A stretch of DNA of 64,000 bases from a virus (IMGVR_UViG_3300037116_000081:1-64000), one strand, 5' to 3'. Counted from the first letter of the stretch, positions 12,769 through 41,623 are shown. Notes: a model not told the origin generated them from the letters alone. Numbers and translations are program-made.

Positions 12769-12832
12769 GACGACTGAGGGACACCCCGAAAGCTTCAACG
12801 CGCTGCTACTCCAGTGCAGCGCGAAACGGAGA

Positions 12833-18222: not shown

Positions 18223-18280
18223 GGGGGCTGGTGGATCTTTCGCGGACCTCATCAGCCCCGCTCACTTAAAAGTTTTATTC
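18223..18280 (+). terminator. Terminator-like hairpin after the capsid candidate
   Basis: GGGGCTGGTG...CATCAGCCCC stem followed by an A/T-rich tract. Confidence 0.45.
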
Positions 18281-18324
18281 GTCTTGCGCTGCTCTGGAAT
18301 GCAGCGCGGAGAAAGGTCGATCAA

Positions 18325-18486
18325 ATGTGTGGATGCAACAGCGCTCTTACACCGCAATGGGGCGGGGTGTCTTTGCCGACCGATCCGATGGAGCGTGCCC
18401 GCTATGTAAGTGCGCTGCTAAAGGGATACACGCAACTCCAGATTGACGAAGATCCGATCCTGAAATATTTGCAGGTACACGGATGA
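18325..18486 (+). CDS. 53-aa hypothetical protein between two inverted hairpin sites
   Basis: MCGCNSALTPQWGG...; RBS provided by the flank of site 18280. Confidence 0.5.
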   Translation: MCGCNSALTPQWGGVSLPTDPMERARYVSALLKGYTQLQIDEDPILKYLQVHG

Positions 18487-18547
18487 AACGAAATTCGAAT
18501 GCGCTGCTACTCCAGTGCAGCGCGAAACGGAAAATGGAGAGCGAGTA

Positions 18548-25986: not shown

Positions 25987-26265
25987 AAATGTTCCTTTCA
26001 AACAATCCTGACGTAGCCGAACTCTTAGGCGCTGGGCTCATCGCTCTGTTCTTCATGCTGGGCGACTACTACGCTTCACGTGTGGAAGGCGGGTACACGA
26101 TCGCGCGGTCAGTGGAAACGATTCGCGATATGTCGGCTTCAGTTCAAGAGGGCACACCATGAAGTTGAGAGGCTGGATACTCATGGCTCTCTGGAGTGGT
26201 TTCTACAGAAGCATCTTGCGTTTTGTGCCGCACTGGAATTGCGGCACGGAGAAAGGTCGATCCGA

Positions 26266-26520
26266 ATGAACGATAATCCGCTAGGCCCATTGCAGGGCAC
26301 ATCGAGTCAGCAGTTCCACCTGAACACGCTGGATTTCCAGAAAGTCGGCCGCATGGTGCTAGTGCAGATCATCGGGCTCGGCCTGACGCTCGGGGTTCCG
26401 TGGTTGCTGAAGCTTTCCTACGTGTGGAAGGGCCACGATTACACGCCAGATGTCCTGATCGTGGTGAACTGCGTAGCTGAACTGGGGAGACGTTTTCTGA
26501 CCGGGGCACCGAAGACCTGA
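26266..26520 (+). CDS. Holin-like 2-TM protein
   Basis: 84 aa; close paralogue at 46593..46847. Confidence 0.55.
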   Translation: MNDNPLGPLQGTSSQQFHLNTLDFQKVGRMVLVQIIGLGLTLGVPWLLKLSYVWKGHDYTPDVLIVVNCVAELGRRFLTGAPKT

Positions 26521-26697
26521 AAGGAACCCATGAAAGATATCATTCAACGAGTGCTGCTTGAACAGACGAACCTCTCGGACGCAAAGGCGGAGTATGTGGC
26601 ACGGGAAATCGTGAACGCGTTGGGGCCTTACGCGCGGAACGATGATATCGGCAGCAGAACCGAGTACGCGGAGTCCGCAACTTAAAAGTAGAGGCGT

Positions 26698-27105
26698 GTG
26701 TTAACCTTGATGTTGAATCCGTTCGCTGATTACCACTTCATCTTTGATATCATCTCTGGCGTTGCGGTTGTCGCGGGCTCCTACTTCGGGCTCATGATAA
26801 AGAACGCGCTCGGGGCCATCCGGCTAGAGCAGGCCAACGCGAAGTCCGAACTACTCTTACAGCAATCGCACACGAAAGCAGAACTACTCGCCCATCAGAA
26901 CGAAGTCAAAGAGGAAATGCTCGAACAGCATGACGTGGTTGTCGAAGGGCAGCACGATTTAAGGGCCGAGTTTGTGGATAAACACGCTGAAAACAAACAA
27001 TCTCTTGCGGTTCACCTCAATGACGATGACCGCCGATTTGAAGCCTTGAACACAGTGCTGGCGCGGATCGATAAGACGGTCGAGAAGATAGCCAACGGGC
27101 ACTGA
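26698..27105 (+). CDS. TM plus coiled-coil protein (lysis-associated?)
   Basis: One TM followed by a heptad-like helix. Confidence 0.6.
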   Translation: MLTLMLNPFADYHFIFDIISGVAVVAGSYFGLMIKNALGAIRLEQANAKSELLLQQSHTKAELLAHQNEVKEEMLEQHDVVVEGQHDLRAEFVDKHAENKQSLAVHLNDDDRRFEALNTVLARIDKTVEKIANGH

Positions 27106-27227
27106 CGACAGCCCAACCTTTGGGCGGGGATACTCCAGATCCCCGCCGACACCTGACTGAGCACATTTGAACAGTATCAAAACCCCTGAACTGGGGTATA
27201 CTCCAATCTGAAGAGGAGAAAACGAAA

Positions 27228-27521
27228 ATGTCTACCAAGCCTGTTCCAGCAACGGATAAAAACGAGAAAACCATCTCGGTGAACGTGGAAGGAAAATCGC
27301 GCCAAGTCGTCATTCAGCGGCACGAAACCACCACACACATTCTCGATCGGCTGAACCTGAAGGGCTATCAGCTCTCCATGGGGCCGAGCACGCCACAGAA
27401 AACTAACGTGCTCAACGCCGGCGATATCGTTTTTGACAACGTAGTAGAAAACGAAGGGCTCGTCGCGACTGCGGTTCCGCCTGTCGGAAGACCTGCGCAA
27501 CCTCAGCCCGTCAAAAAGTAG
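27228..27521 (+). CDS. Hypothetical protein, possible ubiquitin-like beta-grasp fold
   Basis: Own TTGAAC-17-TATACT promoter and GAGGAG RBS; beta-beta-helix pattern. Confidence 0.6.
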   Translation: MSTKPVPATDKNEKTISVNVEGKSRQVVIQRHETTTHILDRLNLKGYQLSMGPSTPQKTNVLNAGDIVFDNVVENEGLVATAVPPVGRPAQPQPVKK

Positions 27522-27526
27522 GGACT

Positions 27527-27730
27527 ATGTTCCCTGCCTTTCTGATCCAGATTGTCATTTGCCTCATCATCGTGGGGCTCCTGCTGTACGTGGTCAACCT
27601 TCTGCCGATTGAGCCGAACATCAAGCAGATTATCCGGGTGGTGGTGATTGTGTTCGTTGTCATCTGGTTACTCTATGCTTTGATGGGTGCGGCTCCTATG
27701 GCTCCTATGAGTTTGCCCCTTAGACGTTGA
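27527..27730 (+). CDS. Thivi_2564-like small membrane protein
   Basis: IIVGLLLY.VN.LP...IK.II.VVV...V.WLL pattern. Confidence 0.7.
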   Translation: MFPAFLIQIVICLIIVGLLLYVVNLLPIEPNIKQIIRVVVIVFVVIWLLYALMGAAPMAPMSLPLRR

Positions 27731-27815
27731 ATCACAGCCGGCTTTAGGCGTATACTTCTGACATGAGCATCCTCCGTTTCGTGCGGCATTGGAGTAGCCG
27801 CACGGAGGGCTGTCG

Positions 27816-28232
27816 ATGACACCGACCTTGCAGGCGCGATCTGTACACTTCAGCTCCTCATCAGACCGTTGGGCCACCCCGCGGGCCGTTTACGATGCGC
27901 TCGACGCGGAGTTTGCTTTTGATTTTGACCCATGCCCGTTAGATGGAAGCGCAGACGGCCTAGCCAGCCTGTTTACGGAGTGGCGTGGAAGGCGGGTATT
28001 CTGCAACCCTCCGTATGGCCCCGGCCTCGGAAAGTGGCTGGAACGTGGCCTAGAAGCCGAACTAGCAGTCTTCCTCGTCCCTGCCCGCACTGATACGCGC
28101 TGGTTCCATGACATCGTGCTACCAAAAGCGGTGGAGATACGATTCCTGAAGGGCCGCCTGACATTCGGAGATGCCGTCAACCCGGCCCCGTTTCCTAGTA
28201 TGGTAGTGATATTCCAGAGGGCAGGTCGATGA
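27816..28232 (+). CDS. Phage DNA N6-adenine methyltransferase
   Basis: W.TP..LD.EF.FD.DPC, FCNPPYG, LVPARTDT.WF and IRF..GRL.F motifs. Confidence 0.9.
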   Translation: MTPTLQARSVHFSSSSDRWATPRAVYDALDAEFAFDFDPCPLDGSADGLASLFTEWRGRRVFCNPPYGPGLGKWLERGLEAELAVFLVPARTDTRWFHDIVLPKAVEIRFLKGRLTFGDAVNPAPFPSMVVIFQRAGR

Positions 28233-28542
28233 CCCGGCTGCTACTCGCGGTGTGGTGGTCTGCCGCTGGTTGGATTGCCATGTGCGCGGGTGTTAGCTGG
28301 ATTCTTTTTAACGGTTGGTTGCGGAAGACAGTTCAAACTCTTGGGCGGGGCTACTCCAAGTGCCCCGCCGAAACCCCAAAGTAGCGTATGACACTACAGG
28401 TCTGTGACGTATGCCGATTAGTAGACGGAGACTTGTCAGTGAAGTTGTGCGACTGGTGCCAATCCTGTAAAGCGTGGATATGTCAGAAGGACTGGAATAA
28501 CTGGCCCCGGCGCTCGCTCGCGGCTATTCGGAGAATGAGACA

Positions 28543-29163
28543 ATGAACCCCCTCGGCACACCAGCTTACTTACCAGGCATCGACGTTTCGCACTTCCAGG
28601 GAGTCATAGACTGGCAGCGCGTGAAAGCGGCGGGCATCGGATTCGCATTTATCAAGGCGACGGATGGGACAGGCTTTGTGGACCCGCAACTGAACTACAA
28701 TGCTCTTGCTTGCCAAGCGCTGAGTATCCCGTTCGGGCTTTACCATTTCTTCCGGCCCACCGCGGACTCTGCGTCACAGGCTCAGTTTTTCCTGGCCAAC
28801 ACCAAGCCCTATACCCCGTTGCTTCCGCCTGCGCTTGATCTGGAACTCGGCCCGGTGACAACGAGTCAAGCGGCTACATGGCTCGACATCGTAGACGTGG
28901 CGCTTGGCCGCGAATCTCTGGTGTACACTGCCCCGGCTTTCGCGGCCGAGAATTTTAACGGCGAAAACTCAGGACTGATCAGCGTCTATCCCCTCTGGAT
29001 TGCAGAGTACACAACCAAACCTGCCCCAACTGTGCCGGCCGCGTGGGAAGATTGGGAATTCTGGCAGCACACCCCGAGTGGACAAGTTGACGGAGTACCG
29101 AATGCAGTAGACTTAGATTGGTTCCATGGAACAGCCGACGATTTAAGGGCATGGGTGAAATGA
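28543..29163 (+). CDS. GH25 muramidase (endolysin)
   Basis: GIDVSHFQG.IDW, IKAT.G, GLYHF, LDLE, LWIA.Y, FWQ and VDLD motifs. Confidence 0.95.
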   Translation: MNPLGTPAYLPGIDVSHFQGVIDWQRVKAAGIGFAFIKATDGTGFVDPQLNYNALACQALSIPFGLYHFFRPTADSASQAQFFLANTKPYTPLLPPALDLELGPVTTSQAATWLDIVDVALGRESLVYTAPAFAAENFNGENSGLISVYPLWIAEYTTKPAPTVPAAWEDWEFWQHTPSGQVDGVPNAVDLDWFHGTADDLRAWVK

Positions 29164-29222
29164 CCGCGAGCATTTTGCGTTTCGTTTTGCACTGGGGTAG
29201 CAGGACGCTGGGAGATCGATGA

Positions 29223-29600
29223 ATGGCGACTAAGCGTAAACAAGTTCGACCCACGAAAGGGGAACCCGCTCAACCGTCTCCCGCTGGTTTTGAAGCATGG
29301 GCTATTATCGAAATCTTTGGCCACCAGAAATACGCGGGCAAGGTTTCGGAGTTCGCAATCGGCGGGTGTAATTTCGTGCGCGTCGATGTTCCCGAGCTGC
29401 CCACGCGCCGTCCACAGGAACCGGCCATGCCCGCGTTTACCAAGCTCTTTGGAAACGGAGCCGTGTATTCGATCACGCTTGTATCTGAGGACGTGGCCCG
29501 CGCGGTCGCTGCGACGATCCGGCCAGAGCCGCTCAACGTTTACATCCCGATAATCCCTGACCGCCAGTTGCGCTCCGGAGACGAGGACGGATTTCAGTGA
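29223..29600 (+). CDS. Conserved phage protein (WAIIEIFGH family)
   Basis: Close inverted copy at 33789..34175. Confidence 0.8.
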   Translation: MATKRKQVRPTKGEPAQPSPAGFEAWAIIEIFGHQKYAGKVSEFAIGGCNFVRVDVPELPTRRPQEPAMPAFTKLFGNGAVYSITLVSEDVARAVAATIRPEPLNVYIPIIPDRQLRSGDEDGFQ

Positions 29601-29676
29601 TGTCGCCGACCGTTCGGAATCTTGGGCAGGGCTACTTCAGTGCCCTGCCGACAGCCCCTGGAACCTGAAAAGATTC

Positions 29677-30210
29677 GTGTACCTCTACTACCAACCCCGG
29701 CGAAGAAGAGGCTTCGGTGATCTCTCAACCGTTGCGGCCGCGATTCAGCAAATTGAAGGTTGGGCGCCCGGTACACGATCTTACCGCAATAACAATCCTG
29801 GGAACCTGATGTACGCGGGGCAACCCGGCGCGACTGGCCAAGATCCTCAAGGCTTCGCAATCTTTCCGGATTATCAAACCGGGCTCACGGCGCTCGACAA
29901 TCAAATCACACTCGACGCTTCGCGCGGCCAGACCATTTCGCAGTTCACGTCCATCTATGCCCCGGCGTCAGACGGAAATAACCCCACGTCGTATGCGGCG
30001 CAAATAGCTTCAGCGGCCGGCCTCTCACCTTCAGACTCACTTTCAGCAGCAATCGCGGGCTCCAGCTCGGCGCCCGACGTTTCAAGCGGTATGGATCTCT
30101 CATCGCTGTTTCCGTCGCTCAGCCTTCCGTCAATCGACTTCACGGACCCGACGACAATTGCCGTAACGGTGGGGATCGGCCTGGCGCTGGCGTGGGCACT
30201 GAATGCGTAA
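29677..30210 (+). CDS. Virion-associated lysozyme-like protein with C-terminal TM
   Basis: I..IEG...RNNNPGNL...FA.F...G..AL...YAP..D.N.P..Y; RRRGFGD leader. Confidence 0.8.
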   Translation: MYLYYQPRRRRGFGDLSTVAAAIQQIEGWAPGTRSYRNNNPGNLMYAGQPGATGQDPQGFAIFPDYQTGLTALDNQITLDASRGQTISQFTSIYAPASDGNNPTSYAAQIASAAGLSPSDSLSAAIAGSSSAPDVSSGMDLSSLFPSLSLPSIDFTDPTTIAVTVGIGLALAWALNA

Positions 30211-30466
30211 CTCTTTTCGTTTTGTGCTGCCCTGGAGTAGCAGCACGGAGAATGGTCGGCAAAGGGGGTGATGCACTTTGCAATCTGCGCACTTTGCGGC
30301 GGCTACCATGCAATCGGATGCTGTCCAACCCCGCAGTTTTGCCCGCGCGTGGACGTGGTAGCGCTAGCGGGCCGGTAAAACCACGATCTCCCAACCTCTT
30401 GGGCGGGGCTATTCCAGTGCCCCGCCGATAGCCCCTATAGTACTTTCCAACTTGAATTAAACTGGT

Positions 30467-30667
30467 GTGTGCAGTAGACTCTTTATCGTGCCCGAAGAAC
30501 TTGACGACACCAACGAACTCTGCCCTGAATGCGGAGAGTCGATTAATGAGTGCGAGTGCGACGACGACGATATTTGCTGTGAAGAGTGCGGAGAGCTGCT
30601 GGCTGAATGCATCTGCGATCCAGACGAAGACGGCGAAGGAGACGAGGACAACGATGAAATCAGCTAA
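30467..30667 (+). CDS. Acidic Cys-rich small protein
   Basis: Two CxECGE...ECxC repeats. Confidence 0.55.
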   Translation: MCSRLFIVPEELDDTNELCPECGESINECECDDDDICCEECGELLAECICDPDEDGEGDEDNDEIS

Positions 30668-30872
30668 CCCTTACATCGAAGTGAACCTTCAGATCGACTA
30701 CGATCTACTCGAATCACAGCGCTGCTTGTGTGGCGACCACAAAACGATGGGGCAGAAGATGTGTAACGGCTGCTACGCGAGACTCCGCACGGGCCAGCAA
30801 GCCCAACTCGCGGCAATGCAGCCGGGGGACGGCGTTGCGAATGCAGTAGCAGGATTGGTGCGGCGTGGCTGA
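30654..30872 (+). CDS. Small Zn-finger protein
   Basis: CLCG...CNGC. Confidence 0.55.
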   Translation: MKSANPYIEVNLQIDYDLLESQRCLCGDHKTMGQKMCNGCYARLRTGQQAQLAAMQPGDGVANAVAGLVRRG

Positions 30873-31092
30873 TATCGTTCACATTGCCGCGATTCCCCAG
30901 GAGAAAGAGCAACGCTGCCTCCGTTGTCTGCGAAAGCTGATCGACATCGACCCGGTAACGCAAGCCAGCTTTACGCCCACAGCCTTCGTGATGCAAACAG
31001 CGGGCGGGCATTGCGAAATCCAAGAGTCGGACGCAGGGCCGGGACAGATCGCATGCAGGGGTCGGGGTAGGCCACGGGAGAAAAGCATATGA
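30865..31092 (+). CDS. Small Cys-containing protein
   Basis: Coupled; CxxC. Confidence 0.5.
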   Translation: MADIVHIAAIPQEKEQRCLRCLRKLIDIDPVTQASFTPTAFVMQTAGGHCEIQESDAGPGQIACRGRGRPREKSI

Positions 31093-31502
31093 CGTGCCCG
31101 AAGTGCGGCGCGGAAGTCCCAGAAGGAAAGATCGCCTGCCAATGTTTCCTGGTGGCTGTCGATAACGAGATTGAAACGCGCGCGCTGAAAAACTTTGCGG
31201 AGGGTCCACCACACACTTCGCGCTTGTACCTGACAAGCTCCCCCTCTAGCGGCTACCACTTAATGCCGATGCCGCGGGACTGCTTGACGCTGTGTCGCAA
31301 GAAACGCTACGGCAGACCCGAGACCCGCATAATCTTCGCCGACGAGATCCGGAAGAAAGGGCTCGATATCACAAGCGGAAAGAAACCCGATTGGTGCATG
31401 GGCTGTCTGATGAAAGCGCTTCAGAGCGCGAACGCGGGAAAGCCTCAGCCGGCGAAAGACAACTCCGAAGAGCGCCAACCCCAAAAGAGCCAATGCGAAT
31501 AG
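31089..31502 (+). CDS. Zn-ribbon protein
   Basis: CPKCG...CQC and CMGC. Confidence 0.6.
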   Translation: MTCPKCGAEVPEGKIACQCFLVAVDNEIETRALKNFAEGPPHTSRLYLTSSPSSGYHLMPMPRDCLTLCRKKRYGRPETRIIFADEIRKKGLDITSGKKPDWCMGCLMKALQSANAGKPQPAKDNSEERQPQKSQCE

Positions 31503-31894
31503 ATGTAACTCCTGGTGATGTTCAAGTAGCCTCAGTTGAGGTACGCCGGCATACTGGGGGGATCTACAGCGTCCAAATCCTGACGCCACACGAACGGCGG
31601 GCCGGATGCATCGCGCACGGATCAGTAACTGGCAAGAATGATCCGCGTTCCCAGATGGTCTACCTGTACGCCTTTGAGCCTGGTTTGGGCGTACTGAATG
31701 CCCCGACGCGAATTCTTTTCACGCCAGAATCAAACGATGAAGAAGAAGCTTTTTTACTAGGCCTCTTCGACGTACTGGACGATTGGTCGCGCTACACCGT
31801 GGCGCTCATTGCAATCCCGGCTTCAGTACTTGAAGAAGCTGAAGAAGCAGGAAGCTGGGAGCCACAAGGGCCAGTGGACTACTTGGCTACCTGA
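31493..31894 (+). CDS. Hypothetical protein
   Basis: Overlapping start at 31493. Confidence 0.55.
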   Translation: MRIDVTPGDVQVASVEVRRHTGGIYSVQILTPHERRAGCIAHGSVTGKNDPRSQMVYLYAFEPGLGVLNAPTRILFTPESNDEEEAFLLGLFDVLDDWSRYTVALIAIPASVLEEAEEAGSWEPQGPVDYLAT

Positions 31895-32540
31895 GACCCG
31901 AGATCCGTTCCAGCAATCCCATGATCCTGTCCAGCTTGTCTATTATACATTCGCGCTCCTCTGAGCTGTCTTTCGTCGGCTGTTCCTTTTCCGCGTTCGC
32001 GCGCTGAGGCGGCACGGCGAACGCGGCGCTAGCCCTGAGATTGGGCAACACGTCCCCCTGTGAGTTGCCGGGGAAGTGTGGGCCGTCGTGTCCGACGTCG
32101 TACCCACACCGAATAATCCGCGCCCAATCATTCTGAAACCCAGCAGAACCGTGAGGAGTTGAGTAGAAGTACGGGCACTGTTCACGGTGCTTGGCGCATC
32201 CAGCAACACCAGGACAGTCGGGCTGATCATTGTACATTCGCGGGCCGGCATTCCCGCAAATTCCGCATGGCGAATCCGCATATGCTGAATGGGCTCCTGA
32301 GTGGCCATTATTCAACTCGCATGAATTCCCGCCCATGGTGTCCCTCCCGCACTTTTCACGCGGCATAGCGCCCTCCTTGTTTACTAACTTGTGTGGACCG
32401 TAATGCCCTTCGACCATGACACAACCCGTCTCGTGGCACCGCACCAACGGAGTGAATATGTGCTCTCCGTCATGGCCCCGATGGACCCTACATTGCGTGG
32501 TGCCTTCGTAGACCCCGCAACGCGCTGGATCATGCGGCAT
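31887..32540 (-). CDS. Cys/His-rich repeat protein
   Basis: Four C-x4-GHxGxH units; AAGGAGG RBS duplicated internally. Confidence 0.7.
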   Translation of the reverse strand: MPHDPARCGVYEGTTQCRVHRGHDGEHIFTPLVRCHETGCVMVEGHYGPHKLVNKEGAMPREKCGRDTMGGNSCELNNGHSGAHSAYADSPCGICGNAGPRMYNDQPDCPGVAGCAKHREQCPYFYSTPHGSAGFQNDWARIIRCGYDVGHDGPHFPGNSQGDVLPNLRASAAFAVPPQRANAEKEQPTKDSSEERECIIDKLDRIMGLLERISGLR

Positions 32541-33048
32541 AGCGCCCTCCTTGCTGTCCAATATACACCGAGATCCCGAGACTCTTGATGTCCGAAGGTG
32601 CGAACCTCACAGTATAGCCGATCGACTTCCCGAAGGTCTCAGCAGCAGCGGCAGCGGCTACAGCGGTCTTTAGCGCGTCTTCGAGCCGGGTAGGAGGAAT
32701 AGACGTTGGGATACCGTCCAAGGGCTCAGATTGGTCAAGAATCGTTGCTATGGCTGTTTTAGGAGCTATCTTCGTCTCGTGCGGCAATGGAGTAGCCGCA
32801 CGTTGGGCCCCGTTGGCTATCCAGTTGAAAGTACGCCCGTTCTGGTGTTTCGTGATAGTAAACGGCTGTCCGGGCCTTACGCCCAGGTCTTCGATCTGTG
32901 GGCCTACTAACAGTGGCGTGTACAGCAAGTCACCGTTTGAGAGTATCCAGCGGAGCTGATCTCCCCAGGTGCCGGGCACTAGTTTCCCGGTCGGGTACCT
33001 CAGTGCGATGGTGTAGGGCTTGTTCGGCTCCAACTTTAGGATTGGCAT
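32530..33048 (-). CDS. Hypothetical protein, possible OB-fold ssDNA-binding protein
   Basis: Beta-rich N-domain, linker containing hairpin 32773, helical C-domain. Confidence 0.6.
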   Translation of the reverse strand: MPILKLEPNKPYTIALRYPTGKLVPGTWGDQLRWILSNGDLLYTPLLVGPQIEDLGVRPGQPFTITKHQNGRTFNWIANGAQRAATPLPHETKIAPKTAIATILDQSEPLDGIPTSIPPTRLEDALKTAVAAAAAAETFGKSIGYTVRFAPSDIKSLGISVYIGQQGGRYAA

Positions 33049-33049
33049 G

Positions 33050-33220
33050 TTAGCGGCGAGCCCTTTCGAGTTCATCTTCAGCATCGTCTTCTTCTTCGAC
33101 CGGATCGGCCGCGCGGCTTTGTGCTTGGCTGTGATCTTCAAATCGCCTCTGCTGGTCGCGTGAATAACGGTAAGCGTCCTGTGCGTCAATCGCTCTTTGT
33201 TGTTCTAACCATGTTTGCAT
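33050..33220 (-). CDS. 56-aa acidic protein
   Basis: MQTWLEQQ...EDELERARR; C-terminus resembles 44032..44250. Confidence 0.5.
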   Translation of the reverse strand: MQTWLEQQRAIDAQDAYRYSRDQQRRFEDHSQAQSRAADPVEEEDDAEDELERARR

Positions 33221-33371
33221 CATGGTTAAGTTTCGCCCGCAGACGTTGGGCGCGTCACTGGATCGAAGGTACCGAAATGAAAGGCGAAGATGCCTATGCC
33301 AAATCAGGTGTTTGTCCTAGTACCGAATCCTCAGGGCGCTGCATTCCAGAGCAGCGCGAGACGCAGAAAAA

Positions 33372-33719
33372 TCATAAGCGAGTGAACGTAATCTGATCTC
33401 CTACTTCTGTTGAAAGTGCTCCCCCAGAAGGAAGCTCAAGCACAGAATTGGAGCCGGATACTTCGGCGATTCTGAACCCAGGCGGTGCCGCAACATGCTG
33501 AAGCACGCGCCCGCGATTGTCCAGGTACAGCACGTCAATCGGAAACTTCATCCCCACCGTATGAACGCTCTGGCACTTCAAAATCAGCAAGCCTTCGCCG
33601 GCCTGCATCGACGTTCGATCGAGTAGCCCGCGCGTTCGTTCCTGATCTGATTGAGCTACTTTACAGACTGAACAGAGGAGTATTTGTTTGGTTTGATTGA
33701 ATACTCTAAGGTGGGCCAC
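33372..33719 (-). CDS. DUF192 family protein
   Basis: ER.RGLL.R...G.LI...SVHT.GM.FPIDV.YLD...VLEL..G motif. Confidence 0.9.
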   Translation of the reverse strand: MAHLRVFNQTKQILLCSVCKVAQSDQERTRGLLDRTSMQAGEGLLILKCQSVHTVGMKFPIDVLYLDNRGRVLQHVAAPPGFRIAEVSGSNSVLELPSGGALSTEVGDQITFTRL

Positions 33720-33788
33720 TTCAATTTCCAGGAGTTATCGGCAGGGCACTGGAGTAGCCCTGCCCAAGAGGTTGGACGGTCGTAGAGC

Positions 33789-34175
33789 TCACTGATAATC
33801 ATCCTCGTCTCCTGAGTGCAACTGGCGGTCAGGGATTACCGGAATGTATATATTGAGCGGTTCAGGGCGAATCGTAGCGGCAACCGTGCGCGCTACGCCT
33901 TCAGATACAAGAGTGATCGAATACACAGCGCCGTTCCCAAAAAACTTGGTAAACGCGGGCATCGCGGATTCCTCGGGACGTCGCGCTGGCAACTCCGGAA
34001 CATCGACGCGCACGAAGTTACATCCACCGATTGCGAACTCGGAAACCTTGCCGGCGTATTTTTGATGTCCAAAGATTTCGATAATCGCCCATGCTTCAAA
34101 AGCAGCGGGGGACGGTTGAGCAGGTTCGCCTACCCGTCCCCCTTTGGGGTGTTGAACTTGTTTGCGAGTGCCCAT
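33789..34175 (-). CDS. Conserved phage protein, inverted paralogue of 29223..29600
   Basis: Direct alignment. Confidence 0.8.
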   Translation of the reverse strand: MGTRKQVQHPKGGRVGEPAQPSPAAFEAWAIIEIFGHQKYAGKVSEFAIGGCNFVRVDVPELPARRPEESAMPAFTKFFGNGAVYSITLVSEGVARTVAATIRPEPLNIYIPVIPDRQLHSGDEDDYQ

Positions 34176-34387
34176 TTTTCATAACTCCCAACGTCCTGCA
34201 TTCCAGAGCAGGACGAAACGAATAAATCCCCGCGCCCGGCTCCGTTTCACCTTTTCTGATCACCCCCCGGTAATTTTCAAGGGAAGCGGAGCCAGACACG
34301 AGACGCCCCGAATCTCCGCCGCTCGGGACCACGCGGGTTGCAATCGACGCTCGCCCGGCTAAGGTTGCGGCGCCGATCCGGAACTTG

Positions 34388-34960
34388 TTAAAGCTTCTTA
34401 GCAGCCTTGGCTGTCGCTTGGGCTGCTGTGGTCGTCGCGGTGGTACTCGTAACGGGCGTCGCGACTCCGAACAAATCACCAACCGCCGTCGCTGCTGTCG
34501 GTGACACAGTAACGGTATCGGTCAACGTTTCCGCCGTCGATCCGTCCTTGTTGAGCACCGTCACTGTACAACTGATGGGGACATTCGGCTGCGCGGGAGC
34601 GGAAGGCGTCGATACCACACCGCTAAGCATGGTGAAAGTGCCAGCCGGAACCGAAGCTGTAGCATCTGCCGGCCGCACCGCTACGGGTGATGCGTCAGGC
34701 GTCAACGCGACGGTGGCAGGGTCCGCCGATACAGCGCTAATGGTTTGACCAGGGCCGAGCAACGCGCCAAGAAACGGAGCGGTGCCGAAAATGTAGAAAT
34801 TGTCTGTGTCCCCTACGGGAAGAATCAATGGCATATTTTCTCCTTTTGACTTTGAAAACAGAATGCCGATCCGACTTGGAACCGGGTTAATTAACCGTCG
34901 AAGCTCCTTGAGTATTTCTCTTTCAAGCTCAAGAATTTCTCTAAGCTCTGCGGGCCACAT
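34388..34960 (-). CDS. Ig-like beta-sandwich protein (in-frame fusion of two ORFs)
   Basis: Internal AAGGAG+ATG at 34834; paralogues 45023..45172 and 44545..45021. Confidence 0.7.
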   Translation of the reverse strand: MWPAELREILELEREILKELRRLINPVPSRIGILFSKSKGENMPLILPVGDTDNFYIFGTAPFLGALLGPGQTISAVSADPATVALTPDASPVAVRPADATASVPAGTFTMLSGVVSTPSAPAQPNVPISCTVTVLNKDGSTAETLTDTVTVSPTAATAVGDLFGVATPVTSTTATTTAAQATAKAAKKL

Positions 34961-34962
34961 TT

Positions 34963-35181
34963 CTAGGCCGTGGGTGTTGCGGGCTTCGCCGCGGCGGTTT
35001 TTGCCGCTATCGCTGCCTGAAGTCCTTGAATGGCCGTCATGGCCGCAGTGTCATTGACGTCCGCCTGGGCGAGCACCATAATGGTAGTGCTGCCGTCCGG
35101 ATGCACCAAGCTAAGAATCAGGTTCACGATCCCCGGAGCCTGACCGATCAATGTTGTGATGATTGGCAATATCAAGCCCAT
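34963..35181 (-). CDS. Small amphipathic protein
   Basis: Paralogue of 45174..45389. Confidence 0.7.
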   Translation of the reverse strand: MGLILPIITTLIGQAPGIVNLILSLVHPDGSTTIMVLAQADVNDTAAMTAIQGLQAAIAAKTAAAKPATPTA

Positions 35182-35661
35182 TTATGTCCCCACCTTTGCT
35201 TGGATTATTTGGAGCGTCACCACGAGACTGCTCAGCGCTGTCGTGATAGCCACCTTTGCGGCCGCGTTTTTGATATTGAAAACATCCCCGGAGGTGATCG
35301 ACGCCTGCGCCTCTTGAATGATTGGGGTGATAATCGCCGCTATCGAGGTATTCCCCGCAGCCGCGAGCGTACTGATGGCTTTGGTTGCCGTCACAGCGCG
35401 CACATTGGCGTTGATGATGTCCGTCAGGAGCGCCGCTACCCTAGTTCCTTCAGCCGGCGTCATAGCGCCCTGGTTCACCAACGCCGTGCTCGTGTTGGCA
35501 ACGATCGTCACGCCTTGGGGAATGGCCACTTCGGCATTGGCCACAATCTGAAGCGGTGTGAGCGCAGGCGCGCCGACCGAGCCTACTTTCGCGCATCCAG
35601 TCAACGCCACGAAAAAGATGAGCGGCAGGATCAGTGCCGCACGATGAAATTTAATAGGCAT
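35182..35661 (-). CDS. Helical lipoprotein
   Basis: Lipobox LTGC; paralogue of 45391..45882. Confidence 0.75.
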   Translation of the reverse strand: MPIKFHRAALILPLIFFVALTGCAKVGSVGAPALTPLQIVANAEVAIPQGVTIVANTSTALVNQGAMTPAEGTRVAALLTDIINANVRAVTATKAISTLAAAGNTSIAAIITPIIQEAQASITSGDVFNIKNAAAKVAITTALSSLVVTLQIIQAKVGT

Positions 35662-35662
35662 G

Positions 35663-36019
35663 TTAGCTCAGTACGTTTTGAATGCTCTCGCCGTTTGCCA
35701 CGCGCACGATGATCATTCCTGCCGCCTCGTAGTTCCCAAAGGCTTCGATCCAGATTTGCAGGTACAGCAAATCGTTCGCCGGGTCCACTCCGAGCGTGGT
35801 CAGGTCTTGGTTCGGGTCCACCCACGGGGCCGAGCCGTTATTCTGTGTGGTGTTGAGCGGGCACATGAGGTTTTGGCCCCCACCCGTTTCGTTAGCGAAG
35901 AGCGCGATCGGTTGGCCTTTGTCGATACCGGCCGCGACGATTGAAGCTATCAGGGCTTGCGCCGCGTTCACGGTCACATTCAGCGAAGCGCGCCCCGCTG
36001 TGAATCCTTGAGTGTTCAT
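35663..36019 (-). CDS. Hypothetical protein
   Basis: AAGGAG RBS; paralogue of 45885..46232. Confidence 0.75.
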   Translation of the reverse strand: MNTQGFTAGRASLNVTVNAAQALIASIVAAGIDKGQPIALFANETGGGQNLMCPLNTTQNNGSAPWVDPNQDLTTLGVDPANDLLYLQIWIEAFGNYEAAGMIIVRVANGESIQNVLS

Positions 36020-36368
36020 GTATTTCTCCTTTTTATTTTACCGCTACCAGGTTCTCAACCATCATACTGCAATTCAGATAAGAAGCAAGTACCGGAGCGT
36101 ACCAGGACCTTACTCCGTTTCGCGCTGAACTGGGGTTTCAGCGCGTGAGGATTTGCGGGCACGCCACCACAGTTCTGGATCTCCGCTGCGATTCTTGTGC
36201 CATTTACCTTTGTGCCCCTTAGGGAGCGAGCATTGAGTGCCCCCACGCTTTCCGAACTCAGTTGAACGGCAACGCCTCACGATTGACCTCCCAACGTGCT
36301 GCTACTCCAGATTGACCTCCCAACGTGCTGCTACTCCTACTCCAGTGCAGCACGAGACGAATATAACC

Positions 36369-37202
36369 TCACAGAAATCTTTGATTGACCCAGCTCTGTA
36401 CTCCATCCAGAAACTCAATTGGCCCAAAAGGCGTCTCCTGCGTTTTCCCGCATTCGTAATCCCAAACAGGCTCCCAGAGCTGAACCGATAACAGATCCCG
36501 CAAGTCCCGCTCAATCTCCGCGCTGTGCGTTGCGATGTGCAAGCGCTTCACTTTCGCGTTGAGGTCATCCAGCCCTGCGCGGATCACGAGGTATTCCTGG
36601 CCCTGTATGTCCACGTCGATCACATCGACTAACTGGTGAGGGCGCAGAAGATCGGCCAACGTGACGGTTTCAGTTGTTAGCCCTTCTTCATTGAGCGTAG
36701 CTATCCGTTGTCCGTACCACTCAGCCGGCCGGCCAGTCAGAAAGAGACATTCGCCCGGTGTGTCCGATACTGCGGCTTCGACTAATGTCGGAATGATGCA
36801 AGGCGCTATGCCGAGTCCGTTATCTCGGCAATGTTGCAACATCCATTGGTAATGCGTGGGCTCCGCCTCCACCGCTACCAATCGGGTTCGCTCTAGCCCA
36901 GCCGCAAACGCCGCCCGCACAGACCAGCGGCCATATCCGGCGCCCAGCTCCATGAACGTATAAATTTCGTTCGCGGCCTGCACGGATTCCAGTAGATCAA
37001 TCCACTCAAAGTACTCTTCGTTGAACGCAGGAAGCCCAGCTACTCCTACGGCGCCCGGCCCTTCCCTCGTTGTCTGCGCGGTGAATTCCGCCCGCGAAAC
37101 AGTTCCGAGGAAGCTGTCACTTAGAAAAACAGGATTGCCCCACATGCGTAGAGGAGCCGGCTTCCGCACGAAATGAGAGAAGACTGGGTGATGTTCAGGC
37201 AT
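36369..37202 (-). CDS. FkbM-family SAM methyltransferase
   Basis: MELGAGYG, VAVEAEP, AAVS and VD.IDVDIQG.E motifs. Confidence 0.9.
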   Translation of the reverse strand: MPEHHPVFSHFVRKPAPLRMWGNPVFLSDSFLGTVSRAEFTAQTTREGPGAVGVAGLPAFNEEYFEWIDLLESVQAANEIYTFMELGAGYGRWSVRAAFAAGLERTRLVAVEAEPTHYQWMLQHCRDNGLGIAPCIIPTLVEAAVSDTPGECLFLTGRPAEWYGQRIATLNEEGLTTETVTLADLLRPHQLVDVIDVDIQGQEYLVIRAGLDDLNAKVKRLHIATHSAEIERDLRDLLSVQLWEPVWDYECGKTQETPFGPIEFLDGVQSWVNQRFL

Positions 37203-37205
37203 TGC

Positions 37206-37529
37206 TCAAATCGATTCCCAAAACGATTCCCTTGTCTTGAATGGAGGAGACTCAACATTTTCCGTCCCGCGCTGAACTGGGGTTTCAGCGCGTTGAGCAC
37301 TCATCCACTTACTGAGGGCCTTCGATGCGCAGGGTTCGGAGCAGATGTGTTTTTCTACTGTGTCGTCACCCGCGTTTACAACCGTCGTATCCCATGGGAT
37401 TAATATAAAGACATCGGCGATCAACAAGCTCGGCGTTCGCTGTTGCGCGTACGGCCTTAACCTCCACCAGTGATTCGATTCCTGCTTTTGCTTCCCGCAC
37501 CCATCGCACGAGTAGACTTCGGATTTCAT
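37206..37529 (-). CDS. Zn-binding hypothetical protein
   Basis: CDGCG...NHWW...HICS..C. Confidence 0.65.
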   Translation of the reverse strand: MKSEVYSCDGCGKQKQESNHWWRLRPYAQQRTPSLLIADVFILIPWDTTVVNAGDDTVEKHICSEPCASKALSKWMSAQRAETPVQRGTENVESPPFKTRESFWESI

Positions 37530-37819
37530 TCCGCCATCCGTCCTTTACAGAACTCGCGATGCGCTCCCCGCTGGCCCTGAAGCAACATCACTTCCACGCA
37601 ATTACAGCACAGCCCCGCGTGTTCATCATTCGCGCCTGCGCTCAGTAGCGCGCCGCACTTCCGGCAATTGTGTGGTTCAAACAGCGGACGGAGACGCGTT
37701 CCCAGGTCCCTACAGAATCGCGCGAACTGAAACGGATCAGAAACAGCCAATCCCAAACCAAGCAACGCGAGCAGAGGGAAGAACAACACCAGGCCGACGT
37801 AATTGAATGCGCGTCTCAT
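37526..37819 (-). CDS. TM plus Zn-finger protein
   Basis: N-terminal TM; two CxxC. Confidence 0.5.
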   Translation of the reverse strand: MRRAFNYVGLVLFFPLLALLGLGLAVSDPFQFARFCRDLGTRLRPLFEPHNCRKCGALLSAGANDEHAGLCCNCVEVMLLQGQRGAHREFCKGRMAE

Positions 37820-38001
37820 ATTGGCCTCGCTATTACATCGTGGCTATAATGGTCCCACCAGAAATCATGAAAGCGACTCGCGTTCAACTCGCCGGCATCG
37901 GCTTTTAGCTGATCGAAGTCGGGCTCGAGCAACTCCTGTTCTGACGTGGCAACAAGCGAAGGGAACGCGAGCGAGCACGATTTACAGAACAGTTCGAACA
38001 T
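37816..38001 (-). CDS. Small hypothetical protein
   Basis: Coupled; CxxC ... HxxH. Confidence 0.5.
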   Translation of the reverse strand: MFELFCKSCSLAFPSLVATSEQELLEPDFDQLKADAGELNASRFHDFWWDHYSHDVIARPI

Positions 38002-38643
38002 TTACGCGGCCCTTCGGCTCTTCCCCACGCCTGCGTTCACGTGAGCCAGCGCGGTTTTGAAAAGCTCATCGAAAGATTGCCCGTCTTTGCCGGCCGCGAG
38101 TACGGCCTCCTGCGCTTCAGCAAAAGGAACTTTCAGATTGCAGAGAGCAGAGAGCACATCTTGATGAACTGAAGAAAGCATTTCGCGGTATTGTACTACA
38201 CTTCCACGTTTTGCGTTTCGCGCTGCACTGGAGTTGCAGCGCGTTGGGAGTTCTTTCCCGAAAACTTTGGCAGGACCTCCCACAGTTGCCCGGTTAGGCG
38301 ACGTACCCGACCATTTCTGGCTGTGACTTACCCGTCCCTGTTGTGCCTGGACGCCGATGGATTCAGATTTCTCTGAACGGACGGACTCGCTCATCTCAAG
38401 GTCCTGGGTCTTGCGACCGCGCTTATATGCGCCACTACTCCAGTGTGGCGCAAGACGAAAACTATCGAGATTCAAAAAGAGCCGGGCAACCTTACTGCAA
38501 CCGATTGCCCGGACAAGAAGTACATGCGAAATTACAGATACTCCAAAGCCTATCAGAAACATCCACCCAGGTAAAGAGCGAGTCGCAACCACGCAGAGGG
38601 AAACCAGGGCGACACCAGCGAGGAAGCTGTAGGCGTGTTTCAT
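38002..38643 (-). CDS. Membrane protein with RuvA C-terminal-like domain
   Basis: Two TM, a linker holding two hairpin sites, then QDVLSALCNL....EA..AV.....FDELFK.AL. Confidence 0.55.
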   Translation of the reverse strand: MKHAYSFLAGVALVSLCVVATRSLPGWMFLIGFGVSVISHVLLVRAIGCSKVARLFLNLDSFRLAPHWSSGAYKRGRKTQDLEMSESVRSEKSESIGVQAQQGRVSHSQKWSGTSPNRATVGGPAKVFGKELPTRCNSSAARNAKRGSVVQYREMLSSVHQDVLSALCNLKVPFAEAQEAVLAAGKDGQSFDELFKTALAHVNAGVGKSRRAA

Positions 38644-38945
38644 TTTAACACCTCAGCATTTTCCGTCTCGCGCTGAATTGGAGTCGGATCGTCAGGCAGA
38701 AGTTCCAGTTCGTTTAGCTCGAATGGTATCGCCCCGCCGAGCATCATCTTGGGACCGAAGACCTCAAAGATATTCCAGAGCTGAGTTTCGATCAAGCCAT
38801 CCCGCCAGCCGGAATAGACTGCGTCACAATATTTTTCCCCATCCTGGATGTGGCCGAACACCACACGCGAATAGAAATTAACGAGGATGTTTTGCCCGTG
38901 TCTGTTGAGCTTCACCCGGACTCGTCGGTTAAGGTTGATCTTCAT
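38640..38945 (-). CDS. Conserved phage hypothetical protein
   Basis: NLN..V.VKL...G...QLW.....FG pattern. Confidence 0.7.
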   Translation of the reverse strand: MKINLNRRVRVKLNRHGQNILVNFYSRVVFGHIQDGEKYCDAVYSGWRDGLIETQLWNIFEVFGPKMMLGGAIPFELNELELLPDDPTPIQRETENAEVLK

Positions 38946-39060
38946 GATTTATTTTGTCCCGAAACCAGCCACAAAACAAGTAACCAAAGTACCATTCTTG
39001 TCGTAGTACGAAATCCCTATGTGCTGCATTCCAGGGCAGCACAAGACGCAACCTGCCCAG

Positions 39061-39216
39061 TCAGCAATCGCCGAAATTAACAGTCCAGAGCGCTACAATC
39101 TTCTGCCAAAACGATCCATGGCCGGTCATCTGTATTTCACAGGTCCCGTACTTATAAGTAGTCGCCAGCAATGGCAGACCGCAGATCAGCACACCACATG
39201 CGAGAATGCGTTTCAT
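39061..39216 (-). CDS. 51-aa secreted peptide
   Basis: MKRILACGVLICGLPLLA signal; AAGGAGG RBS; copy at 51971..52126. Confidence 0.7.
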   Translation of the reverse strand: MKRILACGVLICGLPLLATTYKYGTCEIQMTGHGSFWQKIVALWTVNFGDC

Positions 39217-39279
39217 TTGCCTCCTTTCTCCCCATTTTCTTCGTCTCGCGCTGAACTGGGATTTTAGCGCGTTGAGCTT

Positions 39280-39567
39280 TCAGTCCGTGTGGCATCGAAA
39301 ATACCAGCCACCGTTTTGAGACTTGGTCCTCGGGATATCCGGGTCTTTTCCGAAGCGCGGTTTTGCGCAACGCGCCTGTTCAAGCCAATCTCCCCGATCC
39401 GTCGCCGCAATAATCACCACCGGCTGAGATAATGGCATTTCCGCAAACACGATCAAACAAGCGCCTACCTGCGGAATGATAGACCGCTCATGGAAGCCTA
39501 CGACAAGGTACCCGCGTTCCTGAATCAGGAAGCTTGCAACTTCATCACCTTTGGTCATGATGCTCAA
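39280..39567 (-). CDS. Hypothetical protein
   Basis: Bracketed by hairpins 39242 and 39576; C-terminus resembles 43662..43970. Confidence 0.6.
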   Translation of the reverse strand: MSIMTKGDEVASFLIQERGYLVVGFHERSIIPQVGACLIVFAEMPLSQPVVIIAATDRGDWLEQARCAKPRFGKDPDIPRTKSQNGGWYFRCHTD

Positions 39568-39971
39568 CCTCCCAACGTCCTGCTACTCCAGTGCAGGACG
39601 AAACGAATACCATTCCTCATAAGAATAGCGGCTATAATCACCACTCCGAACCACAACATGGACGGCTCCGGAGTAATCGTTGGCGGTGGCACGTACGGCG
39701 GCGGCACAATTGTCTGTCCTGGAGGAATCACAGGAGGCCCCGGAGGGATGACCACGGCCACATACGCAGGCGGCTCCCACGTCTCCGCTTTCGGCGCGCA
39801 CCATTGGATTGCAGGGTTCAGGACCGAATTCTCACAGATAATTTTATCCGTCCCATAACCCGGAAAGTAGACTACCGTTGTCCAGGCGTCCTGTTGCAAG
39901 GTGATCACGAGATCGCCGTAGGTAAACGGTGTCGTACCGTTCCCCATTGGCTGCTGAAGATTGACACTCAT
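39564..39971 (-). CDS. PEP-CTERM-like protein
   Basis: TPEPS-TM-basic tail; paralogue of 51522..51881. Confidence 0.7.
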   Translation of the reverse strand: MSVNLQQPMGNGTTPFTYGDLVITLQQDAWTTVVYFPGYGTDKIICENSVLNPAIQWCAPKAETWEPPAYVAVVIPPGPPVIPPGQTIVPPPYVPPPTITPEPSMLWFGVVIIAAILMRNGIRFVLHWSSRTLGG

Positions 39972-40447
39972 TAGCATTCCTCCGTCTCGCGCTGAACTGG
40001 GGTTTCAGCGCGGGGAACCTCCGACCAATCCCAGAGACTTAGCGCGCCTTTTGCAGGAATCGGAGTTTCGAACGCGCGCACATTTTTAAGTATCCAACCA
40101 AACCGATTCGGAGAATAGTCTCCGAATGCACGCTCTCTTTCCGTGTCCAGTTCAGGGTAATCGTCAAACACTCCCGAGAGGCAGCCGCGCGCCTCTGTCG
40201 GAAGAATGTCAATGAGTTCGCATGTTGCGATAATCTTCCCAATAGGAAGTTGTAACGCGGACACCACGGAAAGGGAAGAACGGAATGGCTCAATTAGAAC
40301 GTAATCGCGGCAATCGGGCGGGAAGCCCTTCGCGGCGTGTATCGCAAGCGGCCCACGGTACGCGGTGCTCCAGGAGCGTGTCTCGATTCTCTTCGCCCCG
40401 AGTGCTACAAGCGTAGCCCATGGCTGAGTGAGAGTCAGGGCTTTCAT
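39971..40447 (-). CDS. ASCH domain protein
   Basis: KALTL.QPWA.L...GAK.IETRSW...RGPLAIHA...P.KG.L.LW. Confidence 0.92.
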   Translation of the reverse strand: MKALTLTQPWATLVALGAKRIETRSWSTAYRGPLAIHAAKGFPPDCRDYVLIEPFRSSLSVVSALQLPIGKIIATCELIDILPTEARGCLSGVFDDYPELDTERERAFGDYSPNRFGWILKNVRAFETPIPAKGALSLWDWSEVPRAETPVQRETEEC

Positions 40448-40617
40448 GCGAGACCTCCCAACGTGCTGCTACTCCAGTGCAGCACGAAACGAATACTACT
40501 CCTCATTCTTTGGCCATTTCGCACGGTCAGTCTTAGGGTACTTTGCGTTCGACGTAAACACTTCGTACGCAGCCATCCCGAGCAGGCATACGATGAGGAG
40601 AAAGCATCCAAGTGCAA

Positions 40618-41373: not shown

Positions 41374-41473
41374 AATCTTGCCTCAGCGCGCGCACGCCGT
41401 CAAGATCCGGAAGTACTAGGACTCACACGCCAGCATCATCTTCCGTTTCGCGCTGAACTGGGGTTTCAGCGCG
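41374..41473. repeat. Direct repeat copy 2
   Basis: Matches 266-365. Confidence 0.95.
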
Positions 41474-41623
41474 TTGAAAGTTCGCAACAAAGAATTGGCG
41501 CGAATAAAATCCCACGTCGCCTGAGTCGAACTTCACCGCGACGTAATTGCATCCCAGATTCACCTTGGTGATTTCACCAACGCTCCGTCTCGTAACTTTG
41601 TCACCCACTTTGAAATCTTCCAT
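41423..41623 (-). CDS. Small SH3/KOW-like protein
   Basis: FKVGDKV...G.I......V.F; shared C-terminus with 315..512. Confidence 0.55.
   Translation of the reverse strand: MEDFKVGDKVTRRSVGEITKVNLGCNYVAVKFDSGDVGFYSRQFFVANFQRAETPVQRETEDDAGV

Follow-up and report, generated by a model that had tools for sequence, protein, structure and literature searches.

We describe here a family of conserved hairpins that marks gene junctions in a virus, based on the first 64,000 nucleotides (hereafter the window) of the 85,924-bp IMG/VR virus record IMGVR_UViG_3300037116_000081. The hairpins have a conserved structure, their subtypes follow the polarity of the neighbouring genes, the cargo genes that they bracket are replaced slot by slot between relatives, and the family is present in unrelated phages. 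From these observations we infer that translation may be coupled, and recombination may occur, at the elements. The resulting picture, in which the sites are both conserved junction linkers coupling translation and crossover points for cassette exchange, has in our judgement roughly even chances of being right.

Self-comparison of the record reveals two phage-like halves, head to tail: positions 1-159 and 42180-42338 are 93% alike, and positions 41623-41938 are 95.6% alike to the last 316 bases. Positions 1 to ~42,170 are called genome A and the remainder of the record (42,170-85,924) genome B. Genome A is regarded as complete in itself, because it is circularly collinear with G002, a 44,054-bp record with direct terminal repeats (28 blocks, 65-83% nucleotide identity). 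For the join of A and B at their homologous ends, a tandem arrangement and an assembly join are both conceivable; G002 matches A alone. Gene coordinates were taken from a heuristic open reading frame (ORF) caller, which is not a validated gene finder.

The family unit spans ~53 nt: the tag CGTYTYG on the 5' side is followed by a covarying stem of 8-9 bp that encloses the 7-nt loop CTGGAGT. A repeat finder, a hairpin scan and a covariance model (CM), which was trained on 30 window copies and returned 33 matches, were concordant on 33 copies in A, or roughly one per 1.3 kb; the same repeat, hairpin and CM searches gave zero full copies in B. A 30-nt degenerate pattern with <=2 mismatches matched 17 times in the record, compared with 0 for the reversed control. 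The initial annotation had placed the sites at 26219..40491 and divided them into three subtypes. Sites do occur there, but copies extend from 327 to 41487 and some lie inside ORFs; likewise, subtypes I, II and III all exist, but they are variants of one hairpin that share the loop and the 5' tag and differ in stem and flanks.

The hairpin structure is under selection. Among the 30 window copies, 99.2% of stem cells are paired and seven of the eight pairs are altered on both sides, a level of pairing and covariation reached by 0 of 500 shuffles. Metagenome contigs supplied a further 106 distinct, independent copies, which are 98.7% paired, again with 7/8 pairs covarying. With an 8-bp stem the loop is ACTGGAGTA; because the bases that flank and close the loop covary in the 106 copies (A-T, T-A, C-G), the true loop is the 7-nt CTGGAGT, which is present in 82 of them. 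The minimum free energy (MFE) folds of single copies range from -12.6 to -23.3 kcal/mol, and empty doublets with 16-24-nt spacers fold as long hairpins of -54 kcal/mol. Rfam covariance models run against 25500-42200 gave 0 matches at E <= 1.

A copy is termed sense when it reads 5'-tag-stem-CTGGAGT-stem-3' relative to the neighbouring genes. Across A and G002, no type II or III copy is sense; 20 are antisense and 2 have mixed flanks. Type I, in contrast, is sense in 22 cases, antisense in 11 and mixed in 5 (0/20 versus 22/33; Fisher p = 4e-7). The fixed polarity claimed at the outset therefore holds for types II/III but not for type I, which is antisense five times in A alone. Copies are found on both strands of A (19 plus, 14 minus), and neighbours mostly alternate in orientation (A: 28 of 32 pairs, p = 1e-5; G002: 19 of 26), so that genes of either strand lie inside convergent, tail-to-tail pairs. 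The eight mixed pairs named in the initial annotation (5894>5389, 26219>27119, 27775>28341, 29178>29622, 34192>33737, 39020>38664, 39576>39242 and 40462>39983) are as described there, and Pfam bears out its labels for two of them, namely the methyltransferase of 27775>28341 (PF05869) and the ASCH protein of 40462>39983 (PF04266). When a crude ORF test was applied to 67 further metagenome hairpins, types II/III were scored as start-side only in 0 of 15 cases, and all 8 start-side-only modules were type I.

Comparison with relatives shows how the slots are filled. Next to the conserved endolysin, A carries I-methyltransferase-II and I-125 aa-II, and G002 carries I-75 aa-II and I-64 aa-II, the methyltransferase slot being occupied in G002 by the different 75-aa gene. 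The metagenome locus L138, a third relative, has yet another cargo in the endolysin-side slot, followed by a 71-nt endolysin 3' fragment and then a second type I copy. This orphan fragment (L138 reverse strand, 2072-2142) lies between type II and type I, downstream of a complete endolysin, and is probably the footprint of imprecise recombination. The A segment 18271-18538 reads I-53-aa gene-I(antisense); the two arms are separated by 15-16 nt, without a gene, in G002 and in two contigs from metagenomes. Synteny between A and G002 breaks at 25 of 27 element junctions versus 32 of 54 others (odds ratio 8.6, p = 0.0018). Gene presence and absence thus coincide with the sites, as the initial annotation had anticipated for a comparison of relatives, the G002 slots holding other genes or none. 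Copy positions and structure are kept between the two genomes at ~70% nucleotide identity. Within A, the unit 29165-29669 (I, cargo, II) is repeated in inverted form at 33720-34234 with 80% identity. The segments that A has in common with element-free B (26267-26524, 39061-39253 and 40502-40621) have element edges and start/stop codons as their limits. A half-element remnant is visible in B at 52140-52260 (5' tag and left stem, unrelated sequence, and a possible right stem ~65 nt on); in A, the same pair of flanking genes encloses two cassettes at exactly this position.

Replacement is also seen in natural populations. DNA runs that contain a 10-kb stretch came from 22 studies of peat and permafrost metagenomes, 9 of them with at least half of its words, and contigs of three DNA runs and one RNA run were aligned to 24500-42500. 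These contigs are short and break at repeats, which makes them uninformative on circles, transcript ends or absence; the RNA run (X23) yielded 19 small pieces that give no view of transcription boundaries. One X7 contig has 27 nt in place of the entire 39233->39634 cassette, its two hairpins included; X4, X7 and X23 contigs have 32 nt in place of gene 41423-41623 and its element (41422->41631); and 40 nt stand in for 38643->38986 in population contigs. The hairpin-free 61-aa gene at 37816-38001 is lost cleanly (37817->38004, a 186-nt skip) in contigs of three runs. Apparent joints at 37202->36116, 37202->38214, 37202->41437 and 27730->26211 arise because contigs of other loci were aligned through their element part to a wrong copy, and loose ends at 33370, 38209 and 38242 are other-locus contigs misplaced in the same way; none are rearrangements. 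No clean insertion, clean empty site or target-site duplication was seen in A/G002, the population contigs or L138.

The copies in A and their cargo are listed below. Elements are CM matches; SD stands for Shine-Dalgarno sequence and uORF for upstream ORF.

327..379 (+): type III element, antisense to local genes; C-terminal tail of ORF 315-512(-), ..QRAETPVQRETEDDAGV
2341..2393 (+): type I element, antisense, flanked by minus-strand genes
3033..3091 (+): degenerate type II-like element with enlarged loop (CM E = 1.3e-4)
5380..5432 (+): type II element at the 3' end of cassette gene 5438-5878(-), a gene missing from G002
5880..5932 (-): type I element, sense; gives GGGGAAAGG and ATG to 5438-5878(-)
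8822..8874 (+): type I element, sense, in the structural module; orthologous copy in G002
12785..12837 (-): type I solo element, antisense; reverse-flank GGAG precedes the ATG at 12839; no counterpart at the equivalent G002 junction
18271..18322 (+): type I element, sense; left arm of the 53-aa gene 18325-18486
18486..18538 (-): type I element, antisense; right arm of the 53-aa gene pair
26210..26262 (+): type I element, sense; GGAGAAAGG and ATG at 26266, the start codon at which homology to element-free B begins exactly
27109..27161 (-): type II element, 4 nt past the stop of 26707-27105
27766..27818 (+): type I element, sense, within an 18-codon uORF (MSILRFVRHWSSRTEGCR*) whose TGA overlaps the methyltransferase ATG
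27816..28232 (+): cargo, Dam-type DNA methyltransferase (Pfam PF05869)
28330..28383 (-): type II element, right end of the methyltransferase cassette
29169..29221 (+): type I element, sense; uORF from the endolysin stop (ATGA) to the next start; two G.U pairs in the stem, from which it could be a chimeric hairpin
29223..29600 (+): cargo, phrog_29525 protein
29611..29663 (-): type II element with the rare GGCAGGGC stem, also found at 33726
30209..30261 (+): type I element, sense
30388..30440 (-): type II element; near-identical copy in the equivalent G002 slot
32764..32816 (+): type I element inside ORF 32530-33141(-), in-frame linker ..QRAATPLPHETK..
33321..33372 (-): type I element
33726..33778 (+): type II element, right end of the inverted duplicate cassette
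33789..34175 (-): cargo, second phrog_29525 copy
34178..34229 (-): type I element, sense, left end of the duplicate cassette
36107..36159 (+): type III element, antisense
36310..36368 (-): type I element with a 6-nt loop duplication
37254..37306 (+): type III element inside the 3' part of ORF 37206-37529(-)
38205..38257 (+): type I element, antisense, inside ORF 38002-38394(-), ..PTRCNSSAARNA.., in a frame unlike that of the 32764 copy
38414..38466 (-): type I element, sense
38655..38710 (+): degenerate type III-like element (CM E = 8.4e-4) that encodes the tail of ORF 38640-38945(-) and lies in its 3' end
39006..39057 (-): type I element, sense
39233..39285 (+): type III element, right end of cassette 39280-39558(-)
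39562..39614 (-): type I element, sense; tail ..IRFVLHWSSRTLGG* of ORF 39564-39971 and SD for 39280-39558
39971..40447 (-): cargo, ASCH-domain protein (Pfam PF04266)
39974..40026 (+): type III element encoding the ASCH protein tail ..PRAETPVQRETEEC*; reverse-flank GGAGG precedes an overlapping TAATG stop/start
40448..40500 (-): type I element, sense, in a uORF tied to both neighbours by ATGA overlaps
41435..41487 (+): type III element within ORF 41423-41623(-)

The loop-duplicated copy at 36310..36368 is followed by an incomplete tandem repeat of its right half (region 36310-36395), and one population contig is without 6 nt at 36331, within this copy.

Translation signals accompany the copies at gene starts. 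The recurring 3' flanks of sense copies are GGAGAAAGGTCGAT.. or TTGGGAGGTC..ATG(A). An SD-like word together with a predicted start is found at -12..+40 nt in 12 of the 22 sense copies of A and G002, in agreement with the SD-like inner flank that had been ascribed to type I. The sense frame reads ..ILRFVxHWSSxT.., and in ~13 of 29 non-antisense copies (A and G002) it stops 9-21 nt past the stem, mostly as ATGA or TGA..ATG, that is, with the TGA overlapping or just ahead of the next ATG. The resulting uORFs or tails are 14-57 codons long, with ATGA overlaps to both neighbours (e.g., 27764-27820, 29161-29225 and 40447-40510). Antisense copies are translated as ..(Q)RAETPVQRETE.. tails that stop 3-6 codons on; at least nine ORFs in A and G002 end in this way, so that the site-encoded tails of the initial annotation (RAETPVQRETE) are real. 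The antisense reverse flank CGAAACGGAG places an SD ahead of the next start (12839, 18548 and 39971), and the SD is paired with the opposite flank in the MFE folds of several copies. Non-synonymous changes in the stem codons follow the base pairing. The constraint therefore acts on the nucleic acid and not on the peptide, and a protein-level constraint on the ILRF.. peptide is thereby ruled out.

No transcription signals were detected at the element. Between 25500 and 42200, 7 sigma-70-like promoter sites were counted against 8.4 expected, with 0 within elements, and no T-tract or canonical terminators were found at the hairpin sites. The left end supplies translation signals only. The "portable expression cassettes" proposed earlier do have distinct left (hairpin, SD and ATG) and right (inverted II/III) ends, but the transcriptional sense of that term is not supported, as neither promoter nor terminator signals were found at the sites. 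A resemblance to sigma-54 sites was dismissed on inspection because the GG/GC spacing is unsuitable, and kissing loops between the 5' and 3' arms were likewise dismissed on inspection, because the loops of paired arms usually differ at 1-2 positions without compensation. A second repeat was noticed in unrelated proteins ending in ..(I/L)QSANAGKPQP.., encoded by ..TTCAGAGCGCGAACGCGGGAAAG.. (window 31420-31502, G002 and five genes of G001); it resembles the right half of the antisense hairpin and may be a derived half-site.

Two copies lie inside genes and are conserved in G002. The copy at 32764-32816 is in frame and forms an inter-domain linker of ORF 32530-33141; the segment is present in 15 of 18 aligned homologues (22 found), the three most distant being without it, and its residues covary among homologues (e.g., RAATPVPHET versus RAETPVQRET). 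The copy at 38205-38257 is read in another frame of ORF 38002-38394.

The CM returned 27 copies in G002, 20 in G010 and 12 in G001. G010 is a 22-kb fragment with P22-type terminase, portal and coat proteins, and no nucleotide or protein similarity was detected between it and A or G002. G001 is an 81-kb P22-like provirus with DNA identical to a prophage in a 7.3-Mb Bryobacteraceae metagenome-assembled genome (MAG); it shares with A/G002 solely cargo-type genes and fibre domains, and its phrog_29525 homologue lies between two elements. No protein is common to all element-bearing phages (BLASTP 1e-4), and the portal gene is preceded by copies in G010 as well as in G001. In the 7.3-Mb MAG, 9/9 CM matches (150 of 3156 candidates scored) and 7/7 pattern matches fall inside the prophage, which indicates that the element is phage-borne and not a host REP. 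Among 185,579 species, each represented by one genome, the commonest stem variants are multi-copy in the Bryobacteraceae MAG only, and the host phylum is likely Acidobacteriota.

Several other matches were set aside. The first viral scan gave 40 loci, of which 2 were real elements and the others chance matches in coding sequence. The viral contigs G007, G011 and G012-G014 have a single exact loop match and no CM match, and G009 has one partial match; singleton matches in two Gammaproteobacteria MAGs and one Anaerolineales MAG are due to chance (CM matches 0, 0 and one weak partial). G001 also carries three sigma-70-family (ECF-like) genes (14183-14704, 18184-18753 and 22802-23284) and encodes RtcB and an SPFH protein. 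The proteins of A are mostly without Pfam or PHROG family, the recognisable ones being a GH25 endolysin, Dam-type and FkbM-type methyltransferases, an ASCH protein and collagen-like fibres. Collagen-repeat tail-fibre paralogues lie at 1353-1985 in A and 42620-43234 in B (72-81% nucleotide identity over ~1 kb), and B contains a 46-nt unit in three perfect tandem copies (49139-49276). GenBank phages (50,697 records) gave no match to 12 kb of DNA, to the hairpin element or to a 506-aa protein.

In our reading, phages of peat-soil Acidobacteria keep the hairpins at gene junctions, mostly as inverted tail-to-tail pairs. Both orientations are usually read as a brief tail or uORF whose end meets or overlaps the start codon that follows. 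With the flanking SD often drawn into an extended helix, we propose that downstream translation would be coupled to the upstream ORF. The ~40 conserved nucleotides would at the same time give co-infecting or resident phages common places to cross over by general recombination, and the content between a sense arm (I) and an antisense arm (II/III) could be swapped as a unit with its neighbours undamaged. The arms should not pair or recombine with each other, because their stems are unlike. General recombination fits better than a precise enzyme, since spacers are replaced and an endolysin fragment is stranded.

It is important to note that several observations weigh against this proposal. Major structural genes of the P22-like G010 and G001 have antisense copies 25-40 nt ahead of them with no obvious SD, so the polarity rule is lineage-specific. 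The loop is equally conserved in antisense and sense copies, and a purely translational role is therefore insufficient. G.U pairs exceed A.C pairs in the stems of sense copies (8 vs 2) and equal them in antisense copies (3 vs 3); this asymmetry, which in the 106 metagenome copies is limited to the outermost pair, does not discriminate RNA from DNA function. Fold z-scores are modest (-0.2 to -3.4). Of the 57 synteny breaks, 32 are without an element, hence the sites are not required for exchange, and the association with breaks is partly regional because the elements cluster in the variable region. The RNA data consist of short assembled contigs only, with no directly observed transcript ends or crossovers. 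Finally, the in-ORF copies in two frames look like selfish insertions.

The in-ORF copies and the equal conservation of the loop keep alive a different explanation, that is, a selfish palindromic element of the REP, REPIN or Rickettsia palindromic element (RPE) kind, in which an inverted doublet replicates and is mobilised in trans by a host or phage enzyme. Such an element would spread within and between phages, tolerate in-frame insertion and sometimes carry a gene between its arms. We hold this to be possible, though unlikely, and it does not exclude the linker role, as the two are mutually compatible. Occurrence in lineages as dissimilar as A/G002 and the P22-like G010 and G001 would follow from it, as would the stable folds of empty doublets, a strict alternation that suits insertion of pairs, in-frame copies in two ORFs and different frames (one insert missing from 3/18 homologues), and the solo copy without a G002 counterpart. 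It does not sit well with the conservation of position and structure between A and G002, which speaks for function over neutral parasitism, nor with polymorphisms that are replacements and show no clean insertion or target duplication. Nor did an enzyme or other dedicated mobility machinery come to light: six-frame searches of the four element-bearing records (the window's record, G001, G002 and G010) found no Y1 (RAYT) transposase (PF01797; control detected in 6 of 14 genomes) and no tyrosine recombinase (PF00589; control detected in 14 of 14), and Pfam scans of the proteins of A, G002, G010 and G001 showed no transposase or integrase, the nucleases and recombinases found being HNH endonucleases (G002) and a resolvase and a PD-(D/E)XK nuclease (G001). 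The sole Y1_Tnp match in the host MAG lies on a separate contig without elements. On the other hand, the form of the hairpin matches that of tagged REPs (head motif, 8-9-bp stems, unlike-stem dimers and intragenic copies), of which the CGTC class is described as likewise having no known transposase (PMC3733652). A variant that we rate slightly lower still is a phage-borne cassette system without a recognisable recombinase, in which REPIN-like doublets would capture single genes between start and end arms, loaded doublets would cross between unrelated phage lineages that share a host, and CTGGAGT would be read by a hairpin-specific DNA enzyme or a host factor.

A purely cis-regulatory hairpin, such as an attenuator, an RNA-processing or stability site or a host-factor site, with an incidental association with variable genes, appears to us improbable. 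A conserved loop on a covarying stem is what such a site would show, and copies do occupy orthologous structural-module junctions in A/G002 (8822 and 18271/18486) and the position before the portal gene in G010 and G001; the lack of a common protein would leave a host factor or the ribosome as reader, and SAS/ESAS of Cluster K mycobacteriophages provide an analogy (PMC3203893). But there is no U-tract, sigma-70 promoter or Rfam family, the loop stays the same whichever way a copy faces transcription, some copies fall within ORFs, and cargo replacement and cassette duplication demand more than regulation. Integron-like behaviour, with the hairpins as attC-like sites, a dedicated recombinase and cassettes as circles, is very improbable: stem structure is conserved above sequence and the sites delimit genes, but each cassette has two inverted sites instead of one attC, there is no common-promoter array, footprints are imprecise, and the recombinase family PF00589 is absent from the searches above. 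The type II flank contains GTTGGGC-like words with a putative resemblance to the integron core, GTTRRRY. Least credible of all is that the hairpins are recognised by a site-specific nicking system, as with the localized nicks known from phiKMV-like, T5-like and tf phages. The antisense loop/stem GCTACTCCAG does include the CTACTCC of the phiKMV consensus CGACxxxxxCCTA/CTCCGG (PMC3517423), a likeness of just 7 nt; nick sites as described in that source lie on a single strand, as opposed to 19 plus and 14 minus copies here, and known consensus sites are without a hairpin.

Among known systems, the PeSLs of T4-type phages are closest in effect (Arbiol et al. 2010, PMC2839356; Comeau et al. 2014, PMC4122927). 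As described in these papers, PeSLs are, like the hairpins, short conserved intergenic stem-loop motifs with an SD and a start codon at their 3' edge; they are concentrated in hyperplastic regions upstream of ORFans, and they bound indels and replacements between relatives, here A, G002 and L138. However, the PeSLs described are built around a sigma-70 promoter and act as terminators, whereas neither signal was found at the hairpin sites; PeSLs are direct repeats whose recombination leads to deletions and mini-circles, whereas the hairpins alternate, have distinct 5' and 3' subtypes, and differ by a conserved loop, a covarying stem and translated copies.

In form, the closest relatives are the tagged REP/BIME/REPIN palindromes, reviewed in a paper that also names RPEs (Di Nocera et al. 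2013, PMC3733652). By that account both have an unpaired head (GTAG or CGTC in REPs, CGTYTYG here), 8-9-bp GC-rich stems, families with unlike stems, tail-to-tail and head-to-head dimers, variable spacers, heterodimers and intragenic copies. They differ in the loop (7-9 nt and conserved in the hairpin, 4-5 nt in REPs) and in that the hairpin occurs, in the host MAG scan, in phage/prophage DNA only and not chromosome-wide, with no RAYT found, and carries genes between dimer arms that are specialised by gene polarity. RPEs are palindromes that lie in frame within protein genes and are translated as an extra peptide; they are ~100-150 bp long and chromosomal. The in-frame intragenic copies described here are similarly translated and missing from some homologues, but the hairpin measures ~53 nt, is found in phages and stands mostly at junctions. 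Integron attC sites are also structured imperfect palindromes delimiting single promoterless genes, but an integron has one attC per cassette, IntI and a unidirectional array, whereas here two inverted sites are found, on both strands, with no IntI. The start-side arm is closest to SAS/ESAS (Pope et al. 2011, PMC3203893), which are described as phage-specific and directly upstream of starts. They include an SD-like core, often with an inverted repeat ahead, do not occur in the host genome and are conserved at orthologous genes, all as in the hairpin. In that description SAS/ESAS are a 13-bp GGGATAGGAGCCC-type repeat in essentially one orientation, with half-sites conserved in sequence and with no 3'-end partner or cassette bracketing; the hairpin has another sequence and both orientations. 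Viral MITEs are known in general (PMC11602168), but neither a target-site duplication nor a related transposase or insertion sequence was seen for the hairpins. Literature searches for such elements, which covered an open-access library only, brought up no alternating, arm-specialised family of phage hairpins.

In phage mosaics the sequences at which exchange takes place are rarely visible. Here the junctions carry a structured repeat with start-side and end-side forms, which is conserved across relatives ~30% diverged and common to unrelated phages of the same habitat. If the hairpins are crossover points, they would provide a readable grammar for the trade in methyltransferase, ASCH and HNH genes among soil phages; if they are mobile, they would represent a REP/RPE-like element confined to viruses. 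With the CM, slots, cargo genes and probable host sharing can be sought among uncultured phages of Acidobacteria, and the module of hairpin, SD and ATGA is a candidate natural translational coupler.

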